A stretch of 43,709 nucleotides of DNA from Vectrevirus T147P1. Below are positions 2,248 to 43,551 of the stretch, piece after piece (positions within the stretch are counted from its first letter, which is position 1; every line of letters starts with the position of its first letter). Position numbers and translations under genes: made by a program. The notes under the pieces are model-generated. The model did no database searches and was not told where the DNA came from. It worked only from the letters and a program-made list of their open reading frames with translations. The DNA is taken from sequence record OZ035797.1; one strand, given 5' to 3'.

Positions 2248-2384
2248 AAGGCCCAGATAATAAGATAAAATAATAGGTAATATATAGGTTAACCTAGGTT
2301 ATATAGGTATGCCTTAGTATGGGTGTACTCCTGTACACCCTATTCCTTACTACCTTACTATATTTACATAATAGGAGAGAGACA

Positions 2385-2663
2385 ATGGCTAATGATTATA
2401 GTAGTCAACCATTAACAGGTAAGTCTAAGAGAAAGCAGGTACAACCTGTAAGTGAAGAACTAATGCTTCCGGTACTCAAAAAAGAGGAAGTTAGTAAGAA
2501 AAGCAATGTTATTAATGATGCCACCAAATCAGGTAAACAGAAAGGGGCCATGGTGTGCCTTGAAGTGGAAGGTGGTGTATTGAAGATTGCTATCGCGGTT
2601 GATGGCAAAGAAGATTCAGAGTGGAAGTTAGTAACAGTGGAACCAACTGTTAACCCAGTTTAA
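2385..2663 (+). CDS. hypothetical small protein, paralog A of tandem pair
   Basis: ATG at 2385 preceded by AGGAGAGAGA; shares SGKQKGAMVxLE...IAxA core with the next ORF; the track ORF from 2319 has a hydrophobic N-extension without SD. Confidence 0.5.
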   Translation: MANDYSSQPLTGKSKRKQVQPVSEELMLPVLKKEEVSKKSNVINDATKSGKQKGAMVCLEVEGGVLKIAIAVDGKEDSEWKLVTVEPTVNPV

Positions 2664-2681
2664 GATAAGGAGGAAGATTAC

Positions 2682-2972
2682 ATGGCTAAATATGGTACTA
2701 CAGGTTCTGTTACTGGTCAGGCTTTTCGAGTAAAAGCAGTACAAACTATTGCAACGGCAATCCCGATGCCTGTTGTTAAAGAAGCAGACCTTAAGAGTAA
2801 AGACCACCCTATCAACATCAAACATTTATCAGGTAAACAGAAAGGTGCAATGGTTGCTCTTGAGAAAGGTGACACAACCCTGCATATTGCTGTTGCACGT
2901 GGCAGTGAACCAACAGACCCTTGGGATGTAACTGGTAGGGAAGAGGAAGCTGTTACTCCAGCAGGGGTATAA
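2682..2972 (+). CDS. hypothetical small protein, paralog B of tandem pair
   Basis: ATG preceded by TAAGGAGGAAG; 96 aa; motif SGKQKGAMVALE shared with the upstream ORF. Confidence 0.55.
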   Translation: MAKYGTTGSVTGQAFRVKAVQTIATAIPMPVVKEADLKSKDHPINIKHLSGKQKGAMVALEKGDTTLHIAVARGSEPTDPWDVTGREEEAVTPAGV

Positions 2973-2974
2973 TA

Positions 2975-3319
2975 ATGCTTAATAAATACTTCAAGCGTAA
3001 AGAGTTTGCTTGCCGTTGTGGCTGCGGTGCATCCACTGTTGATGCTGAATTACTACAGGTAGTAACAGATGTGCGTGAGCACTTTGGTTCTCCTGTAGTT
3101 ATCACTTCGGGGCATCGCTGTGCTAAGCACAATGCTAATGTAGGAGGAGCTAAGAACTCCATGCATCTTACTGGTAAGGCTGCTGACATTAAGGTACGAG
3201 GCATCTTACCTTCTGATGTACATAAGTATCTTACTGATAAGTACCAAGGCAAATATGGGATTGGTAAGTATAACTCCTTTACTCATATTGATGTACGTGA
3301 CGGGTGTGCACGATGGTAG
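2975..3319 (+). CDS. endolysin, peptidase M15-type zinc peptidase (VanY / L-Ala-D-Glu peptidase-like)
   Basis: 114 aa; FACRCGCG, SGHRCAKHN, MHLTGKAAD and FTHIDVRD match the zinc-binding signature of small M15 phage endolysins. Confidence 0.8.
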   Translation: MLNKYFKRKEFACRCGCGASTVDAELLQVVTDVREHFGSPVVITSGHRCAKHNANVGGAKNSMHLTGKAADIKVRGILPSDVHKYLTDKYQGKYGIGKYNSFTHIDVRDGCARW

Positions 3320-3427
3320 GTTGTGTTGCATGGTGTGAACGCATGGTTGCTAAGGCTTCAGAGGAAGGCAACTATGAAGATTGGCAGAACTACTCAACTT
3401 TATTAGCTCAATGGAAAGGGAGATGCA

Positions 3428-3577
3428 ATGAAAAAGCTGTTCAAATCTAAGAAGGTTGTAGGTGCACTAGTTGCATTGGCAATTGCTCTTGTTTCTGTAG
3501 GTCTTGGTGTAGACCTTGGCTCTGGCACGGAATCCTCTGTGACAGACGTGGTCTGCCAAGTGATCACCTGTGAATAA
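3428..3577 (+). CDS. small membrane protein (49 aa), holin-like or antiholin candidate
   Basis: ATG after GGGAGA; MKKLFKSKK then hydrophobic VVGALVALAIALVSVGLGV; below the 60-aa track threshold; sits between endolysin and spanins. Confidence 0.3.
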   Translation: MKKLFKSKKVVGALVALAIALVSVGLGVDLGSGTESSVTDVVCQVITCE

Positions 3578-3791
3578 GTTTCTAGAAGTGCTGGCAGGTC
3601 TTATTGGCCTGCTTGTCTCTGCTAAGAAGAAACAAGAAGAGAAGGAGGCACAAAGTGAAGCGAATCATGTTAGTGACAATCCTGCTGATTGGTTCGCTGA
3701 CCACTTCCGGGTGTCAGCAGGCGTTACCAGAGAAAGCAATGGTGAAACCTCTGAGGCCGACGCTGACGGCAGTTTACGAGGTAGACGATAA
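3570..3791 (+). CDS. i-spanin-like protein (short, N-terminal TMD)
   Basis: 73-aa ORF with hydrophobic FLEVLAGLIGLLVSA then charged KKKQEEKEAQSE; contains the start of the o-spanin ORF in another frame; unusually short and lacks a clear SD. Confidence 0.35.
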   Translation: MNKFLEVLAGLIGLLVSAKKKQEEKEAQSEANHVSDNPADWFADHFRVSAGVTRESNGETSEADADGSLRGRR

Positions 3792-3864
3792 AGTCTGCTT
3801 CAGTAAGCCTGATGCTACAAAATTAGGTTTGTATATTCTTTCGCTAGAACGCGGATATAATTAA
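3655..3864 (+). CDS. o-spanin outer-membrane lipoprotein (Rz1-like), overlapped architecture
   Basis: GTG at 3655 after GAAGGAGG; MKRIMLVTILLIGSLTTSGC gives a signal peptide plus lipobox Cys; starts inside the i-spanin ORF out of frame and extends past it. Confidence 0.5.
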   Translation: MKRIMLVTILLIGSLTTSGCQQALPEKAMVKPLRPTLTAVYEVDDKVCFSKPDATKLGLYILSLERGYN

Positions 3865-3893
3865 TACATAGCTTTATGTATCAGTGTCTTACG

Positions 3894-3916
3894 ATTTACT
3901 GGACACTATAGAAGAG
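3894..3916 (+). promoter_or_regulatory. phage RNAP promoter upstream of tailspike 1
   Basis: ATTTACTGGACACTATAGAAGAG exact consensus. Confidence 0.75.
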
Positions 3917-3995
3917 GTAAGATAGCGCCGTTCTTTTGAGCGGCCTATTACTAGCCAATCTTCATGGTGAGGGTTGGAAAGTAATAGGAGGTTTA

Positions 3996-5888
3996 ATGGC
4001 AAGATTAACTCGCCCTGTTAGTGTATTTAATAGTCTGATGGATATTACTTACCCATGCTCCACTGATGGTGGTAAAGCGGAACTACTACAGGTTATACCC
4101 GGACGTATGTCTGGTGGTGGTATCCTACTTTGGGACGCCAGTATGCCTCAGTCCAATCATAATGGTATTACCATCCTCAGCCCTGAAGCTAAATGGGATG
4201 GTACTCTAGAAGGTTTTAAGGCCTATAGGGAAAGTGGAGGGACTGGCAATGGTTGCTGGGTTCGACCACGCAAAGGTACTGATCTGATGGCATCTTGGGC
4301 TGGTGTTGACACAGACGGGGACTGGATTGCGGATGAGCCACTTATGGCGCTGTGTCAGATTGCACATACACAACGTCGTAATATACGCATAGACTCTGGT
4401 GCTGTCATTCGTTGCGGTTTCACAACTCCGATTTTTCAGCAAGACAAGCACAACATTCTATCTCAAACATCTTTTGTATTACGTGGTTTAAAGAACTTCT
4501 CCATATATGCTGAGCAAGATGCAGAGATAATCACAGACCACCCTGTACATCGTGAGCGTACAGTATTCTTCTTGGACGGTTGCGATAAGGTTACAATTTC
4601 TGGTCTTAAGTTTAATTCTGATTTCAGCGATTATTCTTTCGAACCTAATAGTCCCTATGAGCACCATATCAATGAACACTGGTTAGGTGTAGTTGCAGAG
4701 GCTTGTGGTACTGTTGAGGTTCGCAGATGTATGTTCAATGCACCTCAGTTTGCTGTAAAGGCCGACTGTTTTAATAGAACAGACGGTAGGTGGAATGACA
4801 CAGTTGCAGTAAAAGATTGTTTCTTCCAGTATGCTACAAACTATTGCTTTTTATCACGTAAGTTACGACATTACATCTTCTCTGATAATGAAGTAAGATT
4901 TAATGGACGTAAGTGGCATACATATGGAGAGGCTTGTGCTCCTACTACCTATACTGAGAATCAGATTATCACTCGTAACCGTTTCATAGATCAGATTGCT
5001 GGTCAAAGCTGTATAACTCCTGGTTCTTATGCTAAGCAAGTACTTATTTCAGATAACTTCTGTCAACGTAGTAATGGTATCTTTGTTGAGATAGGCAGTG
5101 CTAGTAATATTAATATTCTTAACAACGTCTCCAAATCTACAGGTGAACGCATCGTCCACGGAAGTGATAAGTATGCAGGAACTACACACATCCTTCTAGT
5201 ATCTGGGGCAGTTGATGATGAACCTGCTGGTGGGCTAAGTAATATCTTGATTCAAGGTAATAACTTCCAAGGCGGTGGTTATGCTTTACAAGAGTACAAT
5301 ACAGGCATCCCTATTCGTCGCGGGTTGGATATTCTTAATAACCACCTTGTAGACTGTATTCCACCAGCCTGTACTAACCAATCCTTTAAGTATATTAGGG
5401 TAGAAGGTAACTACATCCAAGCACCGGATGATTACCCAGATATGGCTATTGCAGGTCAACACCCTATTATCAAGGATAATGTCCTTATCGGTGTGCGATT
5501 GAGGGCTAGAGATTTAGGTTATACTGTTGTAGGGTTAAAAGTAATAGGTAATACTTTTACTGCAAATAGTGTAGCATCTAAGTTCCCTGCACTGATAGAC
5601 TACACTGATCTAGAAGATCTTGAAGCTTATGACAACGCAGCAGGTATTCAGGCATCTTATGATAGCTTTATAGTAGCACCTGATAACTGTAATAAAATTA
5701 GCTTTATGAAAGTCGGTATGGTTGAAGGTTTTACACAGACACCAGCAGTGGTTTATGGTAGTAAGTTGCAAGAACAGAAGGCAGGTGCGATTATTGGCAA
5801 TAGTGCACCTGGGTCTGTACATGGTTGTGCTGCATTCGTGAGTACTTCTAGTGGTGGTTGGGGTTTTATAAACTACGTTCCCGCATAA
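3996..5888 (+). CDS. tailspike protein 1, predicted beta-helix polysaccharide depolymerase; no T7 gp17 N-terminal adaptor domain
   Basis: ATG at 3996 after AGGAGG; ~630 aa with repetitive N/G/I/V-rich segments typical of right-handed beta-helix tailspikes; located after terminase as in SP6/K1-5-type phages. Confidence 0.65.
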   Translation: MARLTRPVSVFNSLMDITYPCSTDGGKAELLQVIPGRMSGGGILLWDASMPQSNHNGITILSPEAKWDGTLEGFKAYRESGGTGNGCWVRPRKGTDLMASWAGVDTDGDWIADEPLMALCQIAHTQRRNIRIDSGAVIRCGFTTPIFQQDKHNILSQTSFVLRGLKNFSIYAEQDAEIITDHPVHRERTVFFLDGCDKVTISGLKFNSDFSDYSFEPNSPYEHHINEHWLGVVAEACGTVEVRRCMFNAPQFAVKADCFNRTDGRWNDTVAVKDCFFQYATNYCFLSRKLRHYIFSDNEVRFNGRKWHTYGEACAPTTYTENQIITRNRFIDQIAGQSCITPGSYAKQVLISDNFCQRSNGIFVEIGSASNINILNNVSKSTGERIVHGSDKYAGTTHILLVSGAVDDEPAGGLSNILIQGNNFQGGGYALQEYNTGIPIRRGLDILNNHLVDCIPPACTNQSFKYIRVEGNYIQAPDDYPDMAIAGQHPIIKDNVLIGVRLRARDLGYTVVGLKVIGNTFTANSVASKFPALIDYTDLEDLEAYDNAAGIQASYDSFIVAPDNCNKISFMKVGMVEGFTQTPAVVYGSKLQEQKAGAIIGNSAPGSVHGCAAFVSTSSGGWGFINYVPA

Positions 5889-5894
5889 TCACAA

Positions 5895-5918
5895 GGCAGT
5901 GCGTAAGCACTGCTTTTC
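5895..5918 (+). terminator. intrinsic terminator-like hairpin between the two tailspike genes
   Basis: GCAGTGC-GTAA-GCACTGC (7-bp stem, GNRA loop) followed by TTTT. Confidence 0.5.
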
Positions 5919-5973
5919 ACGCAACTTTTCTTAAAGGTTATCATGGTGGTAGCCTTTCAGAAAAGGAGGTTAC

Positions 5974-7686
5974 ATGCTTCAAAGATTAAGTGCTTACTTG
6001 GTGAAGTACAAGAGTAAACTAACAGGTACTATTGAGCGCCTGCTATCTGATAAACTATCGGATACAATAGATGTTGCGGATTTTGGAGTTAATCCATCTT
6101 CTAATGACAACAGGCAAGCCCTTCAAGCTGCATTCAATGCGGTCAGATTTCTAGGCGGAGGTACTGTATCAGTCACTAAAGCTGGCGAATATAAACTCAG
6201 TGGTACTGTTGAGATATTTGCTAATACACACTTCAAGGTTGCTAAAGGTGTAACATTTGTACGTGACTACGAAACAGGAGATACGCTATTCAGATTATCA
6301 CAAGGGCAAGCTAGTAATGTAACAGTCAGTGGAGGTGTCTATGAAGGCAATGGTCACATTAAAGGAGATACACCTTTTGTAGTATTTGCATCTACTAGTA
6401 ATAATGATTTGAAGTTTGAAGGCATAACAGTTAACAATGTAGTGGACTACCACGCCATAGATTTAGCAGATTGGAACAACGTAGTTATTCGTGATTGTAA
6501 GTTCCTAGGGTTTAAGAATACAGGCAGTCGTAACTTCTCAGAGGCTATACAGTTAGACCCAGGACTTATTACAGTAGGTCGCTATGTGCAGTCTAGTGGT
6601 TTACTGGTAGAGAATTGCTATGCTGGCCCAAACCTTGATTCTGGATTTGGCGGGTATGGTGCTCTAGTAGGAAATCATGCATCAGCTTATGGTGTTCAAG
6701 ATAACAACATTAGAATCCTAAATTGCACTACAGATGGTGCGCTCTTTGCAGGTGTACGTGTATTTAACTGGAAAAACTGGACAGTACGTGGTTGCACCTT
6801 TAGAAACTCTAATGCAAGAGGTGTTCATGTTACACCTGTCTCCTCTCAAACTAAACCGCAAGGAACTCGACAAGGCAGTGTTGTAGATTGTACTTTTGAT
6901 GGCGTAAGAACACCAGTGCTAATTGCGGCACCATCTTGGCCTTTTACCGATATTAGTGACATTTGGCATGACCATATTGAAATTTCTAATAATACTATGA
7001 TCCTCACAGAGGATGTATCCTATGGTGTAGATGCAAGGTGGTGTAAGAATTTAATTGTAAAAGGTAATACAGGCTCTGGTGGCTTAGGGTTAATCGGTTT
7101 ACGCTTTGGGACAAAATACCACATCGAAGGTAATACTTGGGAAAACGGAAGAGGTAGTGGGATTTGGTTAGGTGAGTCTGATGCTGCTACATTCATTGGT
7201 ACTGGCTTATCGGGCGAAGGTATACTTAGTCGTAATATCCTCTCTAAATTAGGGCAATATGGTATTCATGTAAACTGCAAGGTTGGCGGTCTAGTGATTA
7301 AGGCTAATAATATGAAGGAAGTATCTACAGCTGAAGCAGGTAGGCACTTCATTAGCATAGACACAGGAGCTAACAACATCCTAGTAGAAGGTAATATTGG
7401 AGTAGATGGAGAAAGCCCTAACAAGCCAAGCCTTGGTATTCGTGTTACTTCTTCTTGCTCCAATATTAAACTAATTGGCAATGATTGCTATGGTACGCAA
7501 GCACCTCAGAATAACCAAGGAGTCGGTTCTAGTACGGTGATTGTTTATGGACTAAATGGTAACCCTACAACTTTAGGCGTAGGTGCACCTGTAGGCTCTT
7601 TAGCAACTGATATCAATGGGTCTGGTGGTAGTACATTGTACGTTAAAGAATCTGGTACATCTGCTCAAGGTTGGGTTGCAAAGTAG
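5974..7686 (+). CDS. tailspike protein 2, pectate-lyase-like beta-helix depolymerase
   Basis: 570 aa after AAAAGGAGG; N-terminal IDVADFGVNPSSNDNRQALQAAF resembles the pectate-lyase-3 motif of capsule depolymerases; Gly/Asn-rich repeats. Confidence 0.75.
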   Translation: MLQRLSAYLVKYKSKLTGTIERLLSDKLSDTIDVADFGVNPSSNDNRQALQAAFNAVRFLGGGTVSVTKAGEYKLSGTVEIFANTHFKVAKGVTFVRDYETGDTLFRLSQGQASNVTVSGGVYEGNGHIKGDTPFVVFASTSNNDLKFEGITVNNVVDYHAIDLADWNNVVIRDCKFLGFKNTGSRNFSEAIQLDPGLITVGRYVQSSGLLVENCYAGPNLDSGFGGYGALVGNHASAYGVQDNNIRILNCTTDGALFAGVRVFNWKNWTVRGCTFRNSNARGVHVTPVSSQTKPQGTRQGSVVDCTFDGVRTPVLIAAPSWPFTDISDIWHDHIEISNNTMILTEDVSYGVDARWCKNLIVKGNTGSGGLGLIGLRFGTKYHIEGNTWENGRGSGIWLGESDAATFIGTGLSGEGILSRNILSKLGQYGIHVNCKVGGLVIKANNMKEVSTAEAGRHFISIDTGANNILVEGNIGVDGESPNKPSLGIRVTSSCSNIKLIGNDCYGTQAPQNNQGVGSSTVIVYGLNGNPTTLGVGAPVGSLATDINGSGGSTLYVKESGTSAQGWVAK

Positions 7687-7695
7687 TAGGATTGC

Positions 7696-7845
7696 ATGCC
7701 AATAATCAAATCAGTTAAGCAAAGTGCTGTACGCCAGAACACAGAAGAGCTTATTCAATCAGGCCGTGACCCTAAGCAAGCTTATGCCATTGCCAAGGGT
7801 GTACAACGTCGTGCCTTGAAGAAACCTTCTGCATCTTCTGCGTAA
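7696..7845 (+). CDS. hypothetical small basic protein (49 aa)
   Basis: ATG 10 nt after tailspike 2 stop; MPIIKSVKQSAVRQNTEELIQSGRDPKQAYAIAKGVQRRALKKPSASSA; weak SD. Confidence 0.3.
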   Translation: MPIIKSVKQSAVRQNTEELIQSGRDPKQAYAIAKGVQRRALKKPSASSA

Positions 7846-7849
7846 GCAG

Positions 7850-8700
7850 GTTAATATCTTAGTGTACACAAGGGCAGACCTAGGTTTGCTCTTAGTGTAT
7901 TTACAATGGAGGTCTTATGTATATACCTATTGAAGCAATAGTAGGTTGCCTATGTTTGTTGATAGGTTTCGTTATAGGCGTAATAGCAAAGCCTTAGTAC
8001 TGTACAAGGATTAACCAAAGTCAAAATTTTGATATAGGCGTGTGTCAGCTCTCTCGCCCTCGCCCTCGCCGGGTTGTCCCCATATGGGGTCGGTCGGCGG
8101 TTGACCTAGGAATTTGGCGGGGCGGGTCCGTCTTCAACCTGCTGCCGCAGGAAGCTCGACGGGTGGGCGAGGGCTTGCCTTGTACTCGCTTAGTGGTACA
8201 CAAGGAGAACGCCTAGGAAGCGCTAGGGCACGCCTTAGTATTGGACAAGGTGATTGCCTTAGTTCAACCGCTTAGAGCTTACACGGGCCGTTTTAGGGCC
8301 ATTCCTGAGCGTTTGACAGGGTGTGAGGGCGTGGGCTATCTGTTCGTTTCGTTCACTCCGCTTGCGCTACGTTCACTCGCTCACGTGTACCTTAGGTTAT
8401 TCCTTGATGGATAGCTTAGGTTAGCCTTAGTGGATTACCTTAGTTAAAGCCTTAGTGCTTCACTTAGTATCAGCTTAGTAGTGTACCTTAGTAAGTATTA
8501 GTGTCTTCTCTTAGTGATTGCACATGCAAGCATGTAAGATGCCATTAGGTCGCGGTCGGTAGACCGCTAAAGAAGGAGAATAGTAATAAGATGCAGTAGG
8601 AGGAACACCCGAAACCTAGCCAACCTAGCCTATCCTAGCTCTGTATCTATTGCTTTTCCTTAGTCTAACATGTGAGACAACCTAGATTTATCTTAGTGAT
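7850..8700. repeat. genome terminus-like non-coding region with short repeats
   Basis: no long ORF; two copies of CTTAGTG(G)TACACAAGG near 7859 and 8189; GC-rich island with CTCGCC x3 (8053-8070) and CCCCATATGGGG (8078-8089); >10 copies of CCTTAGT/GCTTAG within 8230-8520; resembles the T7 left-end architecture. Confidence 0.5.
8664..8679. repeat. degenerate copy of the palindromic hairpin family
   Basis: GTCTAACATGTGAGAC, one substitution from the GTCTCACATGTGAGAC palindrome. Confidence 0.35.
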
Positions 8701-8712
8701 GATATCTTAGTG

Positions 8713-8741
8713 TTGACAAGGCCATCTCAATATAATACTAT
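8713..8741 (+). promoter_or_regulatory. host sigma70-like early promoter candidate
   Basis: TTGACA, 17-nt spacer, TACTAT; position corresponds to T7 early promoters near the left end. Confidence 0.45.
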
Positions 8742-8842
8742 TCATCACGTAGGCAGCACTGAGGTGCTTAGTAGCCAGCTAGTAAGGCATACGAAGAGAC
8801 TAGCGCTTACATTGCTCTTTAACAATTTGCTTAGTGTAACCT

Positions 8843-9064
8843 ATGTATGCCGTGGTTAATTACTTATTGAATGAGGGATTAACTATGACATTAAACAACC
8901 GTGAACTATCCGTTCTCTTCACTCTGTTGTGCTACATGATTCGTAACAACGAATTACTTACAGATGATGAGTTAGCCTTGTATCACCGCTTTCTTAACGA
9001 AGGTTGGACCGATACAGTTAATCAATACCGTAACATGATAGATGAGTTGAGGGAGGGTAAATAA
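8843..9064 (+). CDS. hypothetical early protein (start may be ATG 8885)
   Basis: 73-aa ORF; internal ATG at 8885 has a better SD (GAGGGA); first ORF after the early promoter. Confidence 0.5.
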   Translation: MYAVVNYLLNEGLTMTLNNRELSVLFTLLCYMIRNNELLTDDELALYHRFLNEGWTDTVNQYRNMIDELREGK

Positions 9065-9288
9065 TGTATCAACATGAGGTATTCTTTGAATCAGCTAGCG
9101 AAGCTATTCGCTTCCGTGATGATATGATGCAAGCTGGTGTAGGCGTTGATGTGTATCACTATTTGATAGATTACGACACTGAATATCACCGAGTTACCTT
9201 AGTATCTGAGTATGACAACCAAGTCATTACTGAGTACCTAGGCAGTGAAGATTACGATTACGATGAAGTAATCACGACAAATCTCTAA
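9064..9288 (+). CDS. hypothetical acidic early protein
   Basis: 74-aa ORF overlapping the previous stop (TAATG); acidic, Tyr/Asp-rich C-terminus. Confidence 0.5.
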   Translation: MYQHEVFFESASEAIRFRDDMMQAGVGVDVYHYLIDYDTEYHRVTLVSEYDNQVITEYLGSEDYDYDEVITTNL

Positions 9289-9296
9289 ATTAACTG

Positions 9297-9325
9297 TTGA
9301 CAGCCACGGCATACAAGGTTACATT
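9297..9325 (+). promoter_or_regulatory. host sigma70-like early promoter candidate
   Basis: TTGACA, 17-nt spacer, TACATT. Confidence 0.5.
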
Positions 9326-11367: not shown

Positions 11368-13995
11368 ATGCAAGACCTACACGCTATTCAACTTCAACTT
11401 GAAGAAGAAATGTTTAACGGCGGTATCCGTCGCTTTGAAGCGGACCAACAACGCCAGATTGCATCCGGTAATGAATCAGACACGGCATGGAATCGCCGCT
11501 TATTGTCCGAGTTAATCGCGCCAATGGCTGAAGGTATTCAGGCTTATAAGGAAGAGTACGAAGGCAAGCGCGGTCGTGCACCACGTGCATTGGCTTTCAT
11601 TAACTGCGTAGAAAATGAAGTGGCAGCGTATATCACGATGAAGATCGTAATGGATATGCTTAACACTGATGTAACCTTGCAAGCTATCGCTATGAATGTA
11701 GCTGACCGCATCGAAGACCAAGTGCGCTTCAGTAAACTAGAAGGCCATGCAGCTAAATATTTTGAGAAGGTCAAGAAGTCACTTAAGGCAAGTAAGACTA
11801 AATCATATCGCCATGCGCACAACGTAGCGGTCGTGGCTGAGAAGTCAGTAGCTGACCGTGACGCTGATTTCTCTCGCTGGGAAGCGTGGCCTAAAGATAC
11901 CTTGCTACAAATTGGGATGACCTTGCTTGAAATCTTAGAGAATAGCGTATTCTTCAACGGGCAACCTGTCTTCCTCCGCACCTTGCGCACTAATGGCGGC
12001 AAACATGGTGTTTACTACCTACAGACTAGCGAACACGTGGGTGAATGGATAACTGCATTTAAAGAGCACGTAGCTCAGCTGAGTCCAGCCTATGCGCCTT
12101 GCGTGATTCCTCCTCGTCCGTGGGTGTCACCTTTTAATGGCGGTTTTCACACGGAGAAGGTGGCAAGCCGTATTCGTCTGGTTAAAGGTAACCGCGAGCA
12201 CGTCCGCAAGCTGACCAAAAAGCAAATGCCAGCGGTTTACAAGGCTGTTAACGCCTTACAAGCTACTAAGTGGCAGGTTAACAAGGAAGTATTGCAGGTA
12301 GTAGAAGATGTTATTCGTCTAGACCTCGGTTATGGTGTACCTTCCTTTAAGCCGCTCATTGACCGCGAGAACAAACCAGCTAACCCTGTTCCTCTTGAGT
12401 TCCAGCACCTGCGAGGCCGTGAACTTAAAGAGATGCTAACGCCGGAACAATGGCAAGCCTTTATAAACTGGAAAGGAGAATGTACCAAGCTGTATACCGC
12501 TGAAACTAAGCGCGGAAGCAAGTCGGCGGCGACCGTTCGCATGGTTGGACAAGCCCGTAAATACAGCCAGTTTGACGCAATTTATTTTGTGTATGCACTG
12601 GACAGCCGTTCACGCGTTTATGCGCAATCTAGCACGCTCTCGCCGCAATCAAACGACTTAGGCAAGGCATTGCTCCGTTTTACCGAAGGGCAGCGTCTTG
12701 ATAGCACTGAGGCGCTTAAGTGGTTTTTGGTGAACGGGGCGAATAACTGGGGTTGGGATAAGAAAACTTTTGACGTGCGCACCGCTAACGTGCTGGATAG
12801 CGAATTTCAAGACATGTGCCGCGACATTGCAGCCGACCCGCTGACCTTCACTCAATGGGTAAATGCTGATTCCCCTTATGGCTTCCTTGCATGGTGCTTT
12901 GAATATGCGCGTTATCTGGATGCACTGGACGAAGGAACGCAAGACCAATTCATGACGCACCTACCCGTCCATCAAGATGGTAGTTGCTCTGGTATCCAGC
13001 ACTATAGCGCGATGTTACGAGATGAAGTAGGTGCGAAAGCAGTAAACCTTAAGCCTTCTGACTCCCCTCAAGATATTTATGGCGCGGTTGCGCAGGTTGT
13101 TATCCAGAAGAATTACGCCTACATGAATGCAGACGACGCAGTGACTTTCACATCCGGAAGCGTCACACTTACAGGTGCAGAACTGCGTAGCATGGCTAGT
13201 GCGTGGGATATGATAGGAATCACTCGCGGATTGACCAAAAAGCCCGTAATGACACTACCTTATGGCAGCACACGTCTAACCTGCCGTGAATCAGTGATTG
13301 ATTATATCGTTGATTTAGAAGAAAAAGAGGCCCAACGGGCTATTGCGGAAGGGCGTACCGCCAATCCTGTACACCCTTTTGATAATGACCGTAAAGACAG
13401 CCTGACACCTAGCGCAGCTTATAACTATATGACAGCTTTAATCTGGCCTTCTATTTCGGAAGTGGTTAAAGCTCCTATAGTGGCAATGAAAATGATTCGT
13501 CAGCTTGCCCGTTTCGCAGCTAAAAGGAATGAAGGCTTAGAGTATACCCTGCCTACTGGCTTCATCTTGCAACAAAAGATTATGGCTACTGATATGCTCC
13601 GCGTATCTACTTGCTTGATGGGAGAAATCAAGATGAGTCTACAGATTGAAACGGACGTAGTAGATGAAACGGCAATGATGGGCGCTGCTGCTCCTAACTT
13701 TGTGCATGGTCATGATGCCAGTCACCTTATCTTAACGGTCTGCGACCTTGTTGATAAAGGGATTACATCTATCGCAGTAATTCATGATTCTTTTGGCACT
13801 CATGCAGGCCGTACAGCCGATCTACGCAACAGCTTAAGGGCAGAAATGGTGAAAATGTACCAAGGCCGTAATGCACTGCAAAGCCTGCTAGATGAGCACG
13901 AAGAACGCTGGTTAGTTGATACAGGAATCCAAGTACCAGAGCAAGGGGAGTTTGACCTTAACGAAATCTTAGTTTCAGACTATTGCTTCGCATAA
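11368..13995 (+). CDS. single-subunit DNA-directed RNA polymerase (T7 gene 1 / SP6 RNAP family)
   Basis: 875 aa; [25 protein letters not shown]-terminal SDYCFA; [18 protein letters not shown] matches the T7 RNAP segment AINIAQNTAWKINKKVL. Confidence 0.95.
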
Positions 13996-42200: not shown

Positions 42201-42589
42201 TGAACTCTATTGGACGAGAAGACCAAGATGAATATCTGGAAGAGAAGTTATCGCCTAAAGGGTTGGCCTTTGGTGCAATGGGTATGATGAGTACAACTGC
42301 TGTATTTAGTCTAGGTGGAGATTTCTTAGGTGGCCTAGGTGTTCTACCTTCTGAGTTAGTACAATCCCGTTATGAGGCTGGCTTTCAGACTAAGGGTTTG
42401 ATAGACCAAATACCACTAGTAGGTGTTGGTCAAGATGCATATCGTTTAGCAGATTCTATAACTAAATACGCAGAGGGTGATACAGAAGGTGTAGATGTGG
42501 CACGTAGGGCTTTACGCTTAGTGCCTCTAGCTAATGTAATAGGAATCCAGAACGCATTGCGTTATGGCTTAGATGAACTGGAGGATTAA
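39281..42589 (+). CDS. internal virion protein (gp16-like, ejection/core protein)
   Basis: 1102 aa after TGGAGGAATT; largest structural gene, located between the gp15-like gene and the tail-fibre adaptor. Confidence 0.8.
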   Translation: MEQDIKTNWAGYVQSTPEPFSIEAAPVLAPTIRQRNELQEQVLEAKADADILGAVGAAFQNEWLAFGGKRWYDRATADFTPQPDFEIQPEQREALRFKYGTDMMQTITEGVRSEDELNFRIQNADEDLERNKRIAQAGWVGSVATIGAAVLDPVGWVASIPTGGAAKVGLVGRAVRGAIAAGVSNAAIESVLVQGDMTRDLDDIMVALGSGMAMGGVIGAVARGRATKLSEQGDDRAASIVRSADAGDRYVRAVADDSIGAMRVKGEEVLTEGAFDISSKGEDLLKTLQREGNAIDMTPRRWAGTLSALGTVVHSSQDASVRGLGARLFESPQGLGMQKASASLMQNTNLNRLKSADMNRFNDGFDLWLKENNINPVAGHTNSHYVQQYNEKVWEAVRIGMDESTPKSIRMAAEGQQAMYREALALRQRSGEAGFEKVKADDKYMPDIFDSMKARRQFSMHDKEDIIELFSRAYQNGSRKVPKEVADDIARAQVNRVADATLTGQLSFEKAMSGQTKAEYEALMRKAGFSDEEIEKMVEALDNKETRDNISNRAKMSLGLDVTQEYNGIRMRDFMNTNVEELTDNYMKEAAGGAALARQGFSTYQAALNAIDLVERNARNAAKDTKAHAQFEAESAKIRQSEPDYKKAQEKIEELKKRLKLKEKDEAAGLAIDEEIRQMREGLRLIMGKSIDSNPQDLSTKMLRRGRDITGVLRLGQMGFAQLGELANFMGEFGIAATTMALGKQFRFTSKALRNGDGFFRDKNLAEVERMVGYIGEDNWLTTKGARPDEFGDVTTVRGMMAHFDQSMNSIRRAQTNLSLFRMAQGSLERMTNRQIALSFIDHLEGKKIIPQKKLEELGLTQEFMTNLQKHYDANSKGSGLLGFDTMPYAMGETLANAIRRKSGLIIQRNFIGDEGIWMNKALGKTFAQLKSFSLVSGEKQFGRGIRHDKIGLAKKTAYGFALGSIVYAAKAYVNSIGREDQDEYLEEKLSPKGLAFGAMGMMSTTAVFSLGGDFLGGLGVLPSELVQSRYEAGFQTKGLIDQIPLVGVGQDAYRLADSITKYAEGDTEGVDVARRALRLVPLANVIGIQNALRYGLDELED

Positions 42590-43551
42590 TGAGTTATACT
42601 TTCACAGAACATATAGCCAACGGTACGCAAGTAACCTATCCCTTTAGCTTTGCTGGTAGGGATAAAGGTTATCTTCGTGCCTCAGATGTGATAGTGGAGT
42701 CTCTTCAAGGTAACACTTGGATTGAGGTTACATCTGGCTGGCAACTAACTGGCACGCACCAGATTACTTTTGATGTAGCACCAGTTGCAGGTTTGAAGTT
42801 CCGTATTCGAAGGGAAGTACAAAAGGAGTATCCATACGCTGAGTTTGACCGTGGTGTTACCTTGGATATGAAGTCTTTAAATGGTTCTTTCATTCATATA
42901 CTGGAGATTACACAGGAGTTACTTGACGGGTTTTATCCAGAAGGATACTTCATTAAACAGAATGTAAGCTGGGGCGGCAATAAGATTACTGATTTGGCTG
43001 ATGGCACAAATCCTGGAGATGCAGTAAATAAAGGGCAGCTTGATGCCATCGACAAGAAGCATACAGATTGGAACGCCAAACAGGACATTGAGATTGCTGG
43101 CCTTAAGGCTGGTATGACTTCTGGTATTGCGCACAGAACTGTTCCTTGGTACACGATAGCCCAAGGTGGTGAGATTTCCGTAAAACCACCTTATGAATTT
43201 CAAGATGCACTAGTTTTCCTTAATGGGGTATTGCAGCACCAAATTGTAGGCGCATACTCTATAAGCAACAACACTATCACTTTCGCAGAGCCGCTTGTGG
43301 CGGGTACAGAGGTGTATGTGCTGATTGGTAGTCGTGTGGCTACATCTGAACCTAATATTCAGTTAGAGTTGAACTTTGACTTAGTAGAAGGCCAACAAGT
43401 AGTACAGATTGGCTCTGCATTTAAGTACATTGAGGTCTACCTTGATGGATTATTACAACCTAAACTTGCTTATCAGGTAGGCGGTGACATTGTTACTTTC
43501 TCAGAGGGAGTGCCAGAATGCCGGATGACTGCTAAGATTATCACAGAATAA
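42589..43551 (+). CDS. tail fibre adaptor protein with T7 gp17-like N-terminal domain
   Basis: 320 aa; N-terminal region has the character of the gp17 tail-attachment domain but lacks the receptor-binding C-terminal part; separate tailspikes are at 3996-7686. Confidence 0.65.
   Translation: MSYTFTEHIANGTQVTYPFSFAGRDKGYLRASDVIVESLQGNTWIEVTSGWQLTGTHQITFDVAPVAGLKFRIRREVQKEYPYAEFDRGVTLDMKSLNGSFIHILEITQELLDGFYPEGYFIKQNVSWGGNKITDLADGTNPGDAVNKGQLDAIDKKHTDWNAKQDIEIAGLKAGMTSGIAHRTVPWYTIAQGGEISVKPPYEFQDALVFLNGVLQHQIVGAYSISNNTITFAEPLVAGTEVYVLIGSRVATSEPNIQLELNFDLVEGQQVVQIGSAFKYIEVYLDGLLQPKLAYQVGGDIVTFSEGVPECRMTAKIITE

Follow-up and report, generated by a model that had tools for sequence, protein, structure and literature searches.

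Two consecutive genes at positions 3996-7686 of the window (the whole stretch of 43,709 nucleotides analysed here) raise the question of whether their products are the receptor-binding spikes of the phage, how such spikes would be held on the tail and which host glycans they would recognise. The window was a circularly permuted, K1-5-like Vectrevirus genome. With its positions 3800-7800 as a megablast query, 83 records were matched, almost all of them Vectrevirus or K1-5-like coliphages, and the module region was 99.6% identical in the deposited phages T147P9 and T147P1; a literature search on T147P9 or T147_P1 returned nothing relevant. Assignment to the genus Vectrevirus (Molineuxvirinae) follows from nucleotide similarity, seven SP6-type promoters and an 875-aa ORF that occupies the RNA polymerase position (11368-13995). 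An initial annotation had placed the module at the genome end, which holds in the reference orientation of K1-5, whose right end aligns close to window position 8338, but not in the permuted window as given. As the phage is almost identical to deposited genomes and the architecture is the known K1-5/SP6 design, no discovery is claimed at that level; the spike pair is new and uncharacterised.

In the branched arrangement of SP6 and K1-5, which the initial annotation had proposed for this module, the adaptor is encoded apart from the spikes, here as a 320-aa protein at 42589-43551 (+ strand) that would link both of them to the tail. Its residues 3-153 matched Pfam PF03906 at 27.1 bits (cut-off 25.2), 316 of 319 residues (99%) were identical to K1-5 gp37 (YP_654138), residues 1-317 aligned to the 'tail adaptor protein' 7y22_e in the PDB (E = 1.9e-81) and PHROG 2710 was matched at E = 5e-148. 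The adaptor-type N-terminus that had been noticed in this protein was therefore confirmed, and the whole was found to be a short, gp37-like adaptor with a T7 gp17-like N-terminal domain and without a receptor-binding domain of its own.

The two genes themselves had been described as encoding consecutive beta-helix proteins of 630 and 570 aa, and their coordinates proved right. Spike 1 (3996-5888, + strand, 630 aa) occupies the slot held by the K5 lyase gp46 in K1-5 and starts at ATG 3996, ahead of which lies an AGGAGG Shine-Dalgarno sequence; the mechanical ORF start, TTG 3936, was rejected because both this sequence and homology to K1-5 gp46 indicate ATG 3996. Spike 2 (5974-7686, + strand, 570 aa) occupies the slot of the K1-5 endosialidase gp47. 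AlphaFold2 models of both proteins consisted of a long series of short strands (mean pLDDT 84.7 for spike 1 and 89.7 for spike 2), with the beta-helix covering residues ~100-630 of spike 1 and all of spike 2 beyond its first 11 residues. At a Foldseek probability of 1.00, the two models together matched HK620, CBA120 TSP3, Sf6, the K. pneumoniae K1 lyase, GH110 and PfbA; the matches of spike 1 included tailspikes and GH110, and those of spike 2 PfbA and HK620. Spike 2 passed the Pfam Beta_helix cut-off (39.7 bits), whereas spike 1 fell below it (18.6 bits). PHROG searches returned 'tail fiber protein' (PHROG 24092, E = 1e-95) for spike 1 and 'tail spike protein' (PHROG 2234, E = 2e-53) for spike 2. 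The O-antigen tailspikes of HK620, Sf6, P22 and CBA120 share the right-handed parallel beta-helix fold with the window spikes at sequence identities of ~10-17% and TM-scores of 0.3-0.5.

Sequence searches of the PDB gave a chance match for spike 1 (E = 0.16) and the adhesin PfbA alone for spike 2, so that no catalytic mechanism could be transferred; with no close solved homologue, catalytic residues were not assignable in either spike. The initial annotation had also credited spike 2 with a pectate-lyase-like N-terminal motif. Residues 32-77 could be aligned, through a degenerate 'DFG...' motif, with the N-terminal ends of PfbA and of mannuronan epimerases, but Pfam PF12708 gave no match to spike 2 at E <= 1 and was detected only on its homologues of ~33% identity or less, which leaves that claim weak.

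Attachment to the adaptor is suggested by the N-termini. As outlined in PMC6872550, citing Leiman 2007, the spikes of K1-5 are modelled to dock through the peptides MAKLTKP and MIQRLGSSLVK. Residues 1-7 of spike 1 read MARLTRP, identical to the K1-5 heptapeptide at five of seven positions with both changes being K to R, and DNA homology to K1-5 extends through codon 5. Residues 1-11 of spike 2 read MLQRLSAYLVK, which shares 7 of 11 positions with the undecapeptide; similarity to K1-5 gp47 and to the second spikes of PSK8 and LF31P3 reaches about residue 30, and residues 3-57 match the N-terminus of a solved 'phage tail fiber', 7y5s_A. Neither spike matched PF03906, the gp17 N-terminal domain, at E <= 1, in agreement with the earlier description. 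With a gp37-like adaptor and variant heptapeptide and undecapeptide anchors, the SP6/K1-5-style branched arrangement was upheld.

A reading in which the two beta-helix proteins are soluble polysaccharide-degrading enzymes, secreted or associated with lysis, rather than virion spikes, would fit the location of both genes, which directly follow those for endolysin, holin and spanin. It is nevertheless highly improbable in view of the K1-5 docking peptides at both N-termini, the near-identity of the adaptor to K1-5 gp37 and the 'tail' category of both PHROG families. The orthologous slots of K1-5 hold spikes that have been seen on the virion, according to PMC6872550. In other phages, moreover, homologous bodies are joined to genuine tail-attachment domains: a spike 1-like body (45% identical) is fused to a T7 gp17 N-domain in the single fibre of Kayfunavirus T147P5, and other spike 1 homologues are fused to P22 head-binding or CBA120 TSP-N domains. 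A precomputed family table lists PF27114 for the homologues of spike 1.

Virion location and docking of the two spikes are thus predicted by homology to K1-5, and the module is very probably the receptor-binding apparatus of a K1-5-like T7-supergroup podophage of the genus Vectrevirus. A trimeric adaptor would attach to the tail through its T7-gp17-like N-domain and offer two docking sites, one for the heptapeptide of spike 1 and one for the undecapeptide of spike 2, and each tail vertex would therefore bear two different beta-helix spikes, predicted to bind or cleave glycans. The gp37, gp46 (K5 lyase) and gp47 (K1 endosialidase) genes of K1-5 resemble this module in their order near the right genome end, in the upstream promoter and the hairpin-containing linker of 85 nt (87% identity over 5886-6027), in the 7- and 11-residue N-terminal docking peptides and in the provision of two glycan-specific spikes of beta-structure per adaptor. 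Past the anchors, however, the spike bodies are unrelated, slot 2 holds a beta-propeller endosialidase in K1-5 and a beta-helix in the window, and K1-5 targets K5 and K1, whereas the candidate targets here are the O6 O-antigen and the K2 capsule. Salmonella phage SP6 shares the design of a gp37-like adaptor plus two spikes, as does the Klebsiella phage tail complex 7y22/7y5s, to which both the adaptor and the spike 2 anchor were matched; each belongs to another genus and host and has spike bodies with no relationship to those of the window.

Expression signals surround the two genes. Upstream of spike 1, at 3894-3916 (+ strand), lies a promoter of the SP6/K1-5-type phage RNA polymerase, with a sequence identical to the 23-mer ATTTACTGGACACTATAGAAGAG, which occurs seven times within three mismatches, always on the + strand, with 0 copies expected by chance; the promoter proposed at this position was thereby substantiated. 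The promoter block up to 4009 was 93-99% identical to K1-5, LL11 and LF31P3. Between the genes, a conserved linker of 85 nt (5889-5973, + strand) contains the hairpin that had been pointed out near 5895, located here at 5893-5916 and terminator-like, with a T-run behind it, and a second hairpin at 5925-5965 that abuts the Shine-Dalgarno sequence of spike 2. The depositors of LL11 annotated hairpin 1 as a terminator. Folded together, the two reached -35.9 kcal/mol (z = -7.3). The linker was almost invariant in seven phages with different flanking spikes, and a covariation test on these was uninformative because of that invariance; the conservation supports a function for the linker, and the hairpin structure is predicted. 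Both spike genes would be transcribed late from the promoter at 3894, and the linker would probably set the relative dose of spike 2.

From the work on K1-5 onward, such modules have been a textbook example of modular host-range switching. Blastn homology of the window to K1-5, LL11, EC120 and KMB47 ended at 4009 and restarted at 5886, which delimits 4010-5885 (+ strand) as the exchangeable body of cassette 1. The mosaic breakpoints, at 4009, 5886, 6027-6092 and ~7693, fall at codon 5 and the stop of spike 1, at codons ~18-40 of spike 2 and just past the spike 2 stop. Partners are exchanged accordingly among relatives. LL11, EC120, vB-Eco-KMB47 and LI10P3/P5 resemble the window in spike 2, backbone and linkers but combine this spike with a K5 lyase in slot 1 in place of the unrelated 630-aa spike. 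PSK8 and LF31P3 share the slot-1 spike (95.6% and 98.7% identity; T147P9 100%, T147P1 99%) but carry different slot-2 spikes of 507 aa and 727 aa, respectively. Spike 2 was 95-99.5% identical across LL11, EC120, KMB47 and LI10P3/P5, and 97-99.5% identical in LL11, EC120, LI10P3/P5, T147P1/P9 and others. The cassette exchange envisaged by the initial annotation is thus backed by sharp breakpoints and swapped partners, although the promoter and hairpins that had been cited in its favour lie outside the swapped cassettes, in conserved flanking linkers where they probably act as recombination anchors. A comparison of composition gave a GC content of 0.420 for the cassette 1 body and 0.41 for spike 2, compared with 0.452 +/- 0.023 in the remainder of the genome, which puts both spikes within the lower 3-8% of genome windows and is compatible with import without being decisive.

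Three conserved flanks would allow new specificities to be brought in by homologous recombination: the promoter and 5'UTR with the first five codons of spike 1, the linker with the opening ~18-40 codons of spike 2, and the gp48-like ORF downstream. Slot 1 would in this way have lost the K5 lyase of the nearest relatives and gained a spike with relatives on O6-infecting phages, and slot 2 holds a spike common to phages isolated on K2-encapsulated hosts.

The specificity of spike 1 was considered with a published host-range matrix whose scores mix adsorption with post-entry defence, and in which T147_P7 was taken as the window phage on grounds that include the near-identity of siblings, there being no exact match. 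T147_P7 lysed 14 of 21 O6 strains and 7 of 380 non-O6 strains (Fisher p = 5e-16, with rows pre-selected by eye and an approximate denominator of 401 strains); at a score of at least 2 these numbers were 11 and 2, and seven O6 strains were not lysed. From this enrichment, the O6 O-antigen is therefore the reasonably likely target of spike 1. Both T147 and LF31 are hosts of type O6:H1, and Kayfunavirus T147_P5, with its spike 1-like fibre body, lysed 17 of 21 O6 strains. Spike 1 homologues are found in Kagunavirus SHAK7693 (48% identity) and in phiEB49 (32% identity); its identity to relatives with established O6 dependence reaches just 32-48%. Spike 1 might instead be a K5-capsule depolymerase of a new kind and functionally replace the slot-1 lyase of the nearest relatives. 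The isolation host T147, like AN17, is K5-encapsulated, T147_P7 shows a weak enrichment on non-O6 K5 strains (4 of 17, versus 2 of 355 others; p = 4e-5) and the Kayfunavirus with the homologous body lysed 8 of the 17. Such an enzyme is quite unlikely, however, as 13 of these 17 strains were unlysed by T147_P7 and the lysed ones scored only 1-2, 12 of the 14 lysed O6 strains were not K5 (unencapsulated, K2, K15, CatB or type '5'), LF31, the host of LF31P3 with the same spike, has no listed ABC capsule type, and similarity to the K5 lyase was limited to a short patch of 27/82 residues. The distant homologue in phiEB49 points the same way, since that phage was shown by experiment to need the O6 antigen and not K2, depending on O6 rather than on a capsule (PMC12488582). 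Weak lysis of non-O6 K5 strains (4-8 of 17) was seen with all T147-propagated phages, the Kayfunavirus included, none of which carries a K5 lyase; a lysate effect or a second activity is a possible cause.

For spike 2, the hosts of the phages that carry it are informative. Phages of LI10 (O25:K2) and CFT073 (O6:K2) combine spike 2 with the K5 lyase, which leaves K2 as the host feature in common, and the K2 capsule is therefore a candidate target, although on the published host-range statistics the case for it is evenly balanced. The siblings T147_P9 and P10 lysed seven of eight non-O6 K2 strains, versus one of eight for Kayfunavirus T147_P5, which lacks spike 2. T147_P7 itself lysed just one of the eight (LI10), so that this phage may have a weak or impaired spike 2. 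K1E retains a vestigial slot-1 protein, and spike 2 might likewise be a largely silent passenger here, or act on a glycan other than K2. In keeping with this are the restriction of T147_P7 to LI10 among the eight strains, scores on K2 strains of mostly 1 even for the siblings, a host T147 that is K5 and not K2, and three differences of the window copy from that of T147P9 (T270I, A405T, S553G), position 405 being A in the window and T147P1 and T in T147P9, LL11, EC120 and all other copies compared. Set against it are an intact gene, 97-99.5% conserved in ~20 phages and with a confident fold, its presence in phages from two unrelated K2 hosts beside a K5 lyase that is of no use on those hosts, and the broader lysis of K2 strains by the siblings, so that inactivity on K2 seems unlikely, if less so than the K5 reading of spike 1.

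Should K2 be the target, spike 2 would, as a tentative possibility only, be the first depolymerase or receptor-binding protein to be identified for this capsule, and may share a beta-helix lineage with those Gram-positive phage tail proteins that recognise wall teichoic acid. Over its N-terminal half, spike 2 has ~30% identity with SPO1 gp18.3 and its relatives (E about 1e-30). K2 is described as a glycerol-phosphate-containing, teichoic-acid-like polymer (PMC10156666), and SPO1 gp18.3 as mutated on adaptation to hosts without glucosylated teichoic acid (bioRxiv 10.1101/466383). A literature search returned no K2-targeting reagent, and K2 is absent from the review-style list of E. coli K-depolymerases of 2025 in PMC12488582. 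If confirmed, spike 2 would become a capsule-targeting reagent for K2.

The O6 and K2 assignments give testable specificities for two uncharacterised spikes that are frequently found in phages targeting uropathogenic E. coli of ST73 and ST131, and the mapped recombination joints offer practical splice points for host-range engineering of Vectrevirus therapy phages. CFT073 is a member of the ST73 O6:K2 uropathogen lineage, and, if both assignments are true, a single particle would bear an O-antigen key in slot 1 as well as a K-antigen key, a combination that would fit the uropathogens of that lineage.

Megablast of window positions 3800-7800 matched 83 phage records, nearly all of them Vectrevirus or K1-5-like coliphages, and the closest, Vectrevirus T147P9 (two records) and T147P1, aligned over the full query at 99.6% identity. 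The T147 phages belong to the Guelin phage collection (Gaborieau et al., bioRxiv 10.1101/2023.11.22.567924), and the window phage is nearly identical in sequence to deposited genomes. The right end of K1-5 aligns near position 8338, making the window a circular permutation relative to the K1-5 reference, which in the canonical orientation leaves ~0.65 kb between the two spike genes and the right end of the genome, in agreement with the terminal location proposed in the initial annotation. The stretch at 8030-8720 is poor in ORFs, being GC-rich at 8040-8420 and then carrying many copies of CTTAGT/CCTTAGT (8380-8720); as the genome end and terminal-repeat region of K1-5 align here, the physical genome ends were placed in this stretch. 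Upstream of the endolysin lie two tandem paralogous small ORFs (2319-2663 and about 2680-2960) with a common 36-nt repeat (2528-2563 and 2828-2863), which are implausibly called 'acetyl-CoA acetyltransferase' in related records and a likely duplication in the LL11 record.

The two consecutive plus-strand tailspike genes were present as claimed. The ORF of the first (spike 1) extends from 3936 or 3996 to 5888, and the ATG at 3996 was taken as its start, giving 630 aa, since AGGAGG lies 5 nt before it and homology to K1-5 gp46 begins there. The ORF of the second (spike 2) runs from the ATG at 5974 to 7686 and is likewise preceded by AGGAGG. AlphaFold2 models based on alignments of 45 (spike 1) and 20 (spike 2) homologues had mean pLDDT values of 84.7 and 89.7, each consisting of a long stack of short strands. 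Foldseek searches of the PDB returned right-handed beta-helix proteins at a probability of 1.00 for both, namely GH110 galactosidases, the HK620 tailspike, CBA120 TSP3 and Acinetobacter and Klebsiella depolymerases for spike 1, and PfbA, HK620, Sf6 and the K. pneumoniae K1 lyase for spike 2. The beta-helix assignment made initially was thus upheld, although with modest TM-scores of 0.3-0.5 for both spikes it is secure for the fold class and not for a specific enzyme family. Residues 1-100 of spike 1 (3996-4290) were modelled at low confidence (pLDDT 36-70), and residues 12-91 have counterparts in PHROGs without annotation and in proteins of Pseudomonas phages (37% identity); this N-terminal stretch of ~100 residues could be a small domain of its own, a neck or linker that accompanies the beta-helix body. 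A pectate-lyase-like N-terminal motif had been ascribed to spike 2, and its 'DFG' region does align with the N-termini of PfbA and mannuronan epimerases, but PF12708 was not detected on this protein by Pfam, leaving the claim weak.

By Pfam, the T7 tail-fibre N-domain was absent from both spikes and found on the 320-aa adaptor protein (42589-43551; residues 3-153), the distribution that had been proposed. This adaptor is identical to K1-5 gp37 at 316 of 319 positions and, among solved structures, matches 7y22_e, a 'tail adaptor protein' (E = 1.9e-81). In K1-5, docking on the adaptor has been proposed to take place via a heptapeptide, MAKLTKP, for the K5 lyase and via an undecapeptide, MIQRLGSSLVK, for the endosialidase (Latka et al., PMC6872550, citing Leiman et al. 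2007); here, the corresponding N-termini read MARLTRP in spike 1 and MLQRLSAYLVK in spike 2. Over its anchor region (residues 3-57), spike 2 also has a match in the N-terminus of 7y5s_A, a phage tail fibre of solved structure, and the adaptor and both spikes all fall in PHROGs tail families. All the defining features of the K1-5/SP6 adaptor-branched system that can be read from sequence were found, and on this basis the module is a member of that double-spike family, as first suggested, with both spikes, we infer, sitting on the virion.

The promoter assigned to the module was substantiated as an SP6-type 23-mer on the plus strand at 3894-3916, ATTTACTGGACACTATAGAAGAG, seven plus-strand copies of which occur (within 3 mismatches) versus 0 expected by chance. 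The internal hairpin noted initially proved to be one of two on the plus strand, at 5893-5916 (annotated as a terminator in the LL11 record) and at 5925-5965, which together fold the 85-nt intergenic linker at -35.9 kcal/mol (z = -7.3). The 3' arm of the second hairpin, CAGAAAAG, continues into the spike 2 Shine-Dalgarno sequence AAGGAGG, so that this hairpin could influence how spike 2 is translated. The linker is nearly invariant among the seven phages compared, including across differing flanking spikes.

Cassette exchange, also postulated initially, is visible in breakpoints obtained by blastn of window positions 2300-9300 against seven relatives. Homology to K1-5, LL11, EC120 and KMB47 ends sharply at 4009 (codon 5 of spike 1) and restarts at 5886, the spike 1 stop codon; a second break falls at 6027 (K1-5), 6038 (LF31P3) or 6092 (PSK8), with homology returning at about 7693-7696, just past the spike 2 stop. 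Relatives accordingly pair either spike with another partner: LL11, EC120, KMB47 and LI10P3/P5 combine a K5 lyase (98-99% identical to K1-5 gp46) with spike 2 (97-99.5%), and PSK8 and LF31P3 combine spike 1 (95.6-98.7%) with two other second spikes. Given these sharp breakpoints and the near-invariant linker, the promoter and hairpins, which had been regarded as parts of the exchanged module, do exist but lie outside the cassettes in a constant flanking frame, the likely substrate for homologous recombination. The GC contents of the spike bodies, 0.420 and 0.412 respectively, lie at the low end of the genome range (0.452 +/- 0.023). A small conserved ORF (49 aa, MPIIKSVKQ..., 7696-7845) directly after spike 2, homologous in position to K1-5 '48', forms the conserved right flank of the second cassette. 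In vB-Eco-KMB47 (OR424385.1, 3679-5446), the spike 2 orthologue is broken into two short annotated CDS, the long ORF beginning 97 nt downstream in a different frame through a frameshift or sequencing error. In the Kayfunavirus T147P5, a spike 1-like body (45% identity over residues 3-626 of spike 1) lies behind a gp17-type N-domain in a single 824-aa fibre, and other homologues of this body follow a P22 head-binding or CBA120 TSP-N domain; judged from these homologues, the spike 1 body is portable across genera.

Host specificity was approached through the strain table and interaction matrix of Gaborieau et al. (first 49 phage columns), of which only rows with signal for T147 phages were parsed, the non-zero rows having been pre-picked by eye; the serotypes given there were predicted in silico, and lysis scores combine adsorption with intracellular defence. 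The host range of T147_P7 was used as that of the window phage, which is inferred to be T147_P7 or a phage almost identical to it. T147_P7 lyses 21 strains, comprising 14 of 21 O6 strains versus 7 of ~380 others (Fisher p = 5e-16, on an approximate denominator of 401 strains), or 11 O6 versus 2 non-O6 strains at scores of at least 2. The lysed O6 strains span K5, K2, K15, CatB, type '5' and unencapsulated strains and three sequence types, leaving O6 as the common factor. Of the 21 O6 strains, 17 are lysed by Kayfunavirus T147_P5, whose single fibre bears the spike 1-like body. For LF31, the host of LF31P3, the strain table gives O6:H1 and no ABC capsule type. On CFT073, phage phiEB49, which encodes a spike 1 homologue (32% identity), depends on the O6 antigen but does not need the K2 capsule (PMC12488582). 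Together, the host-range statistics and homologues make the O6 O-antigen the most likely target of spike 1, with somewhat better than even confidence. Non-O6 K5 strains were also weakly lysed (4-8 of 17) by every T147-propagated phage (T147_P1, P5, P7, P9 and P10), Kayfunavirus included. None of these phages, whose own host T147 has a K5 capsule, encodes a K5 lyase, and the Kayfunavirus has only the spike 1-like body in common with the others; possible sources are an additional activity of spike 1-type proteins, something present in lysates prepared on T147 and a general permissiveness of those strains.

Phages carrying the K5 lyase with spike 2 were isolated on LI10 (O25:H4:K2) and CFT073 (O6:K2:H1), which have K2 in common, making this capsule the candidate target of spike 2. 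Siblings T147_P9 and T147_P10 lyse seven of eight non-O6 K2 strains and the Kayfunavirus, which lacks spike 2, one of eight. Because most of these scores are only 1, indicating weak lysis, and T147_P7 lyses LI10 alone of the eight, confidence was lowered, and the host-range data leave recognition of K2 by spike 2 at about an even chance. The window copy of spike 2 differs from that of T147P9 at T270I, A405T and S553G, residue 405 being Ala in the window and T147P1 and Thr in T147P9, LL11 and EC120. The Thr405 siblings T147_P9 and T147_P10 are those lysing 7/8 strains, compared with 2/8 for T147_P1 and 1/8 for T147_P7, and this substitution might affect K2 lysis. The N-terminal half of spike 2 is ~30% identical to gp18.3, a tail protein of the Gram-positive phage SPO1 with an implied role in adapting to changes in teichoic acid (bioRxiv 10.1101/466383), and the K2 capsule is a glycerol-phosphate polymer (PMC10156666). 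On a more speculative reading, spike 2 could be an enzyme acting on the K2 capsule and a relative of gp18.3 and similar tail proteins of Gram-positive phages.

Variability of the receptor-binding proteins in these Vectreviruses has already been shown (Gaborieau et al., bioRxiv 10.1101/2023.11.22.567924), and no description of the specificity of either spike was found in the searchable literature. The double-spike architecture itself is already known, and the pair of spikes described here is a new member of the K1-5/SP6 family.
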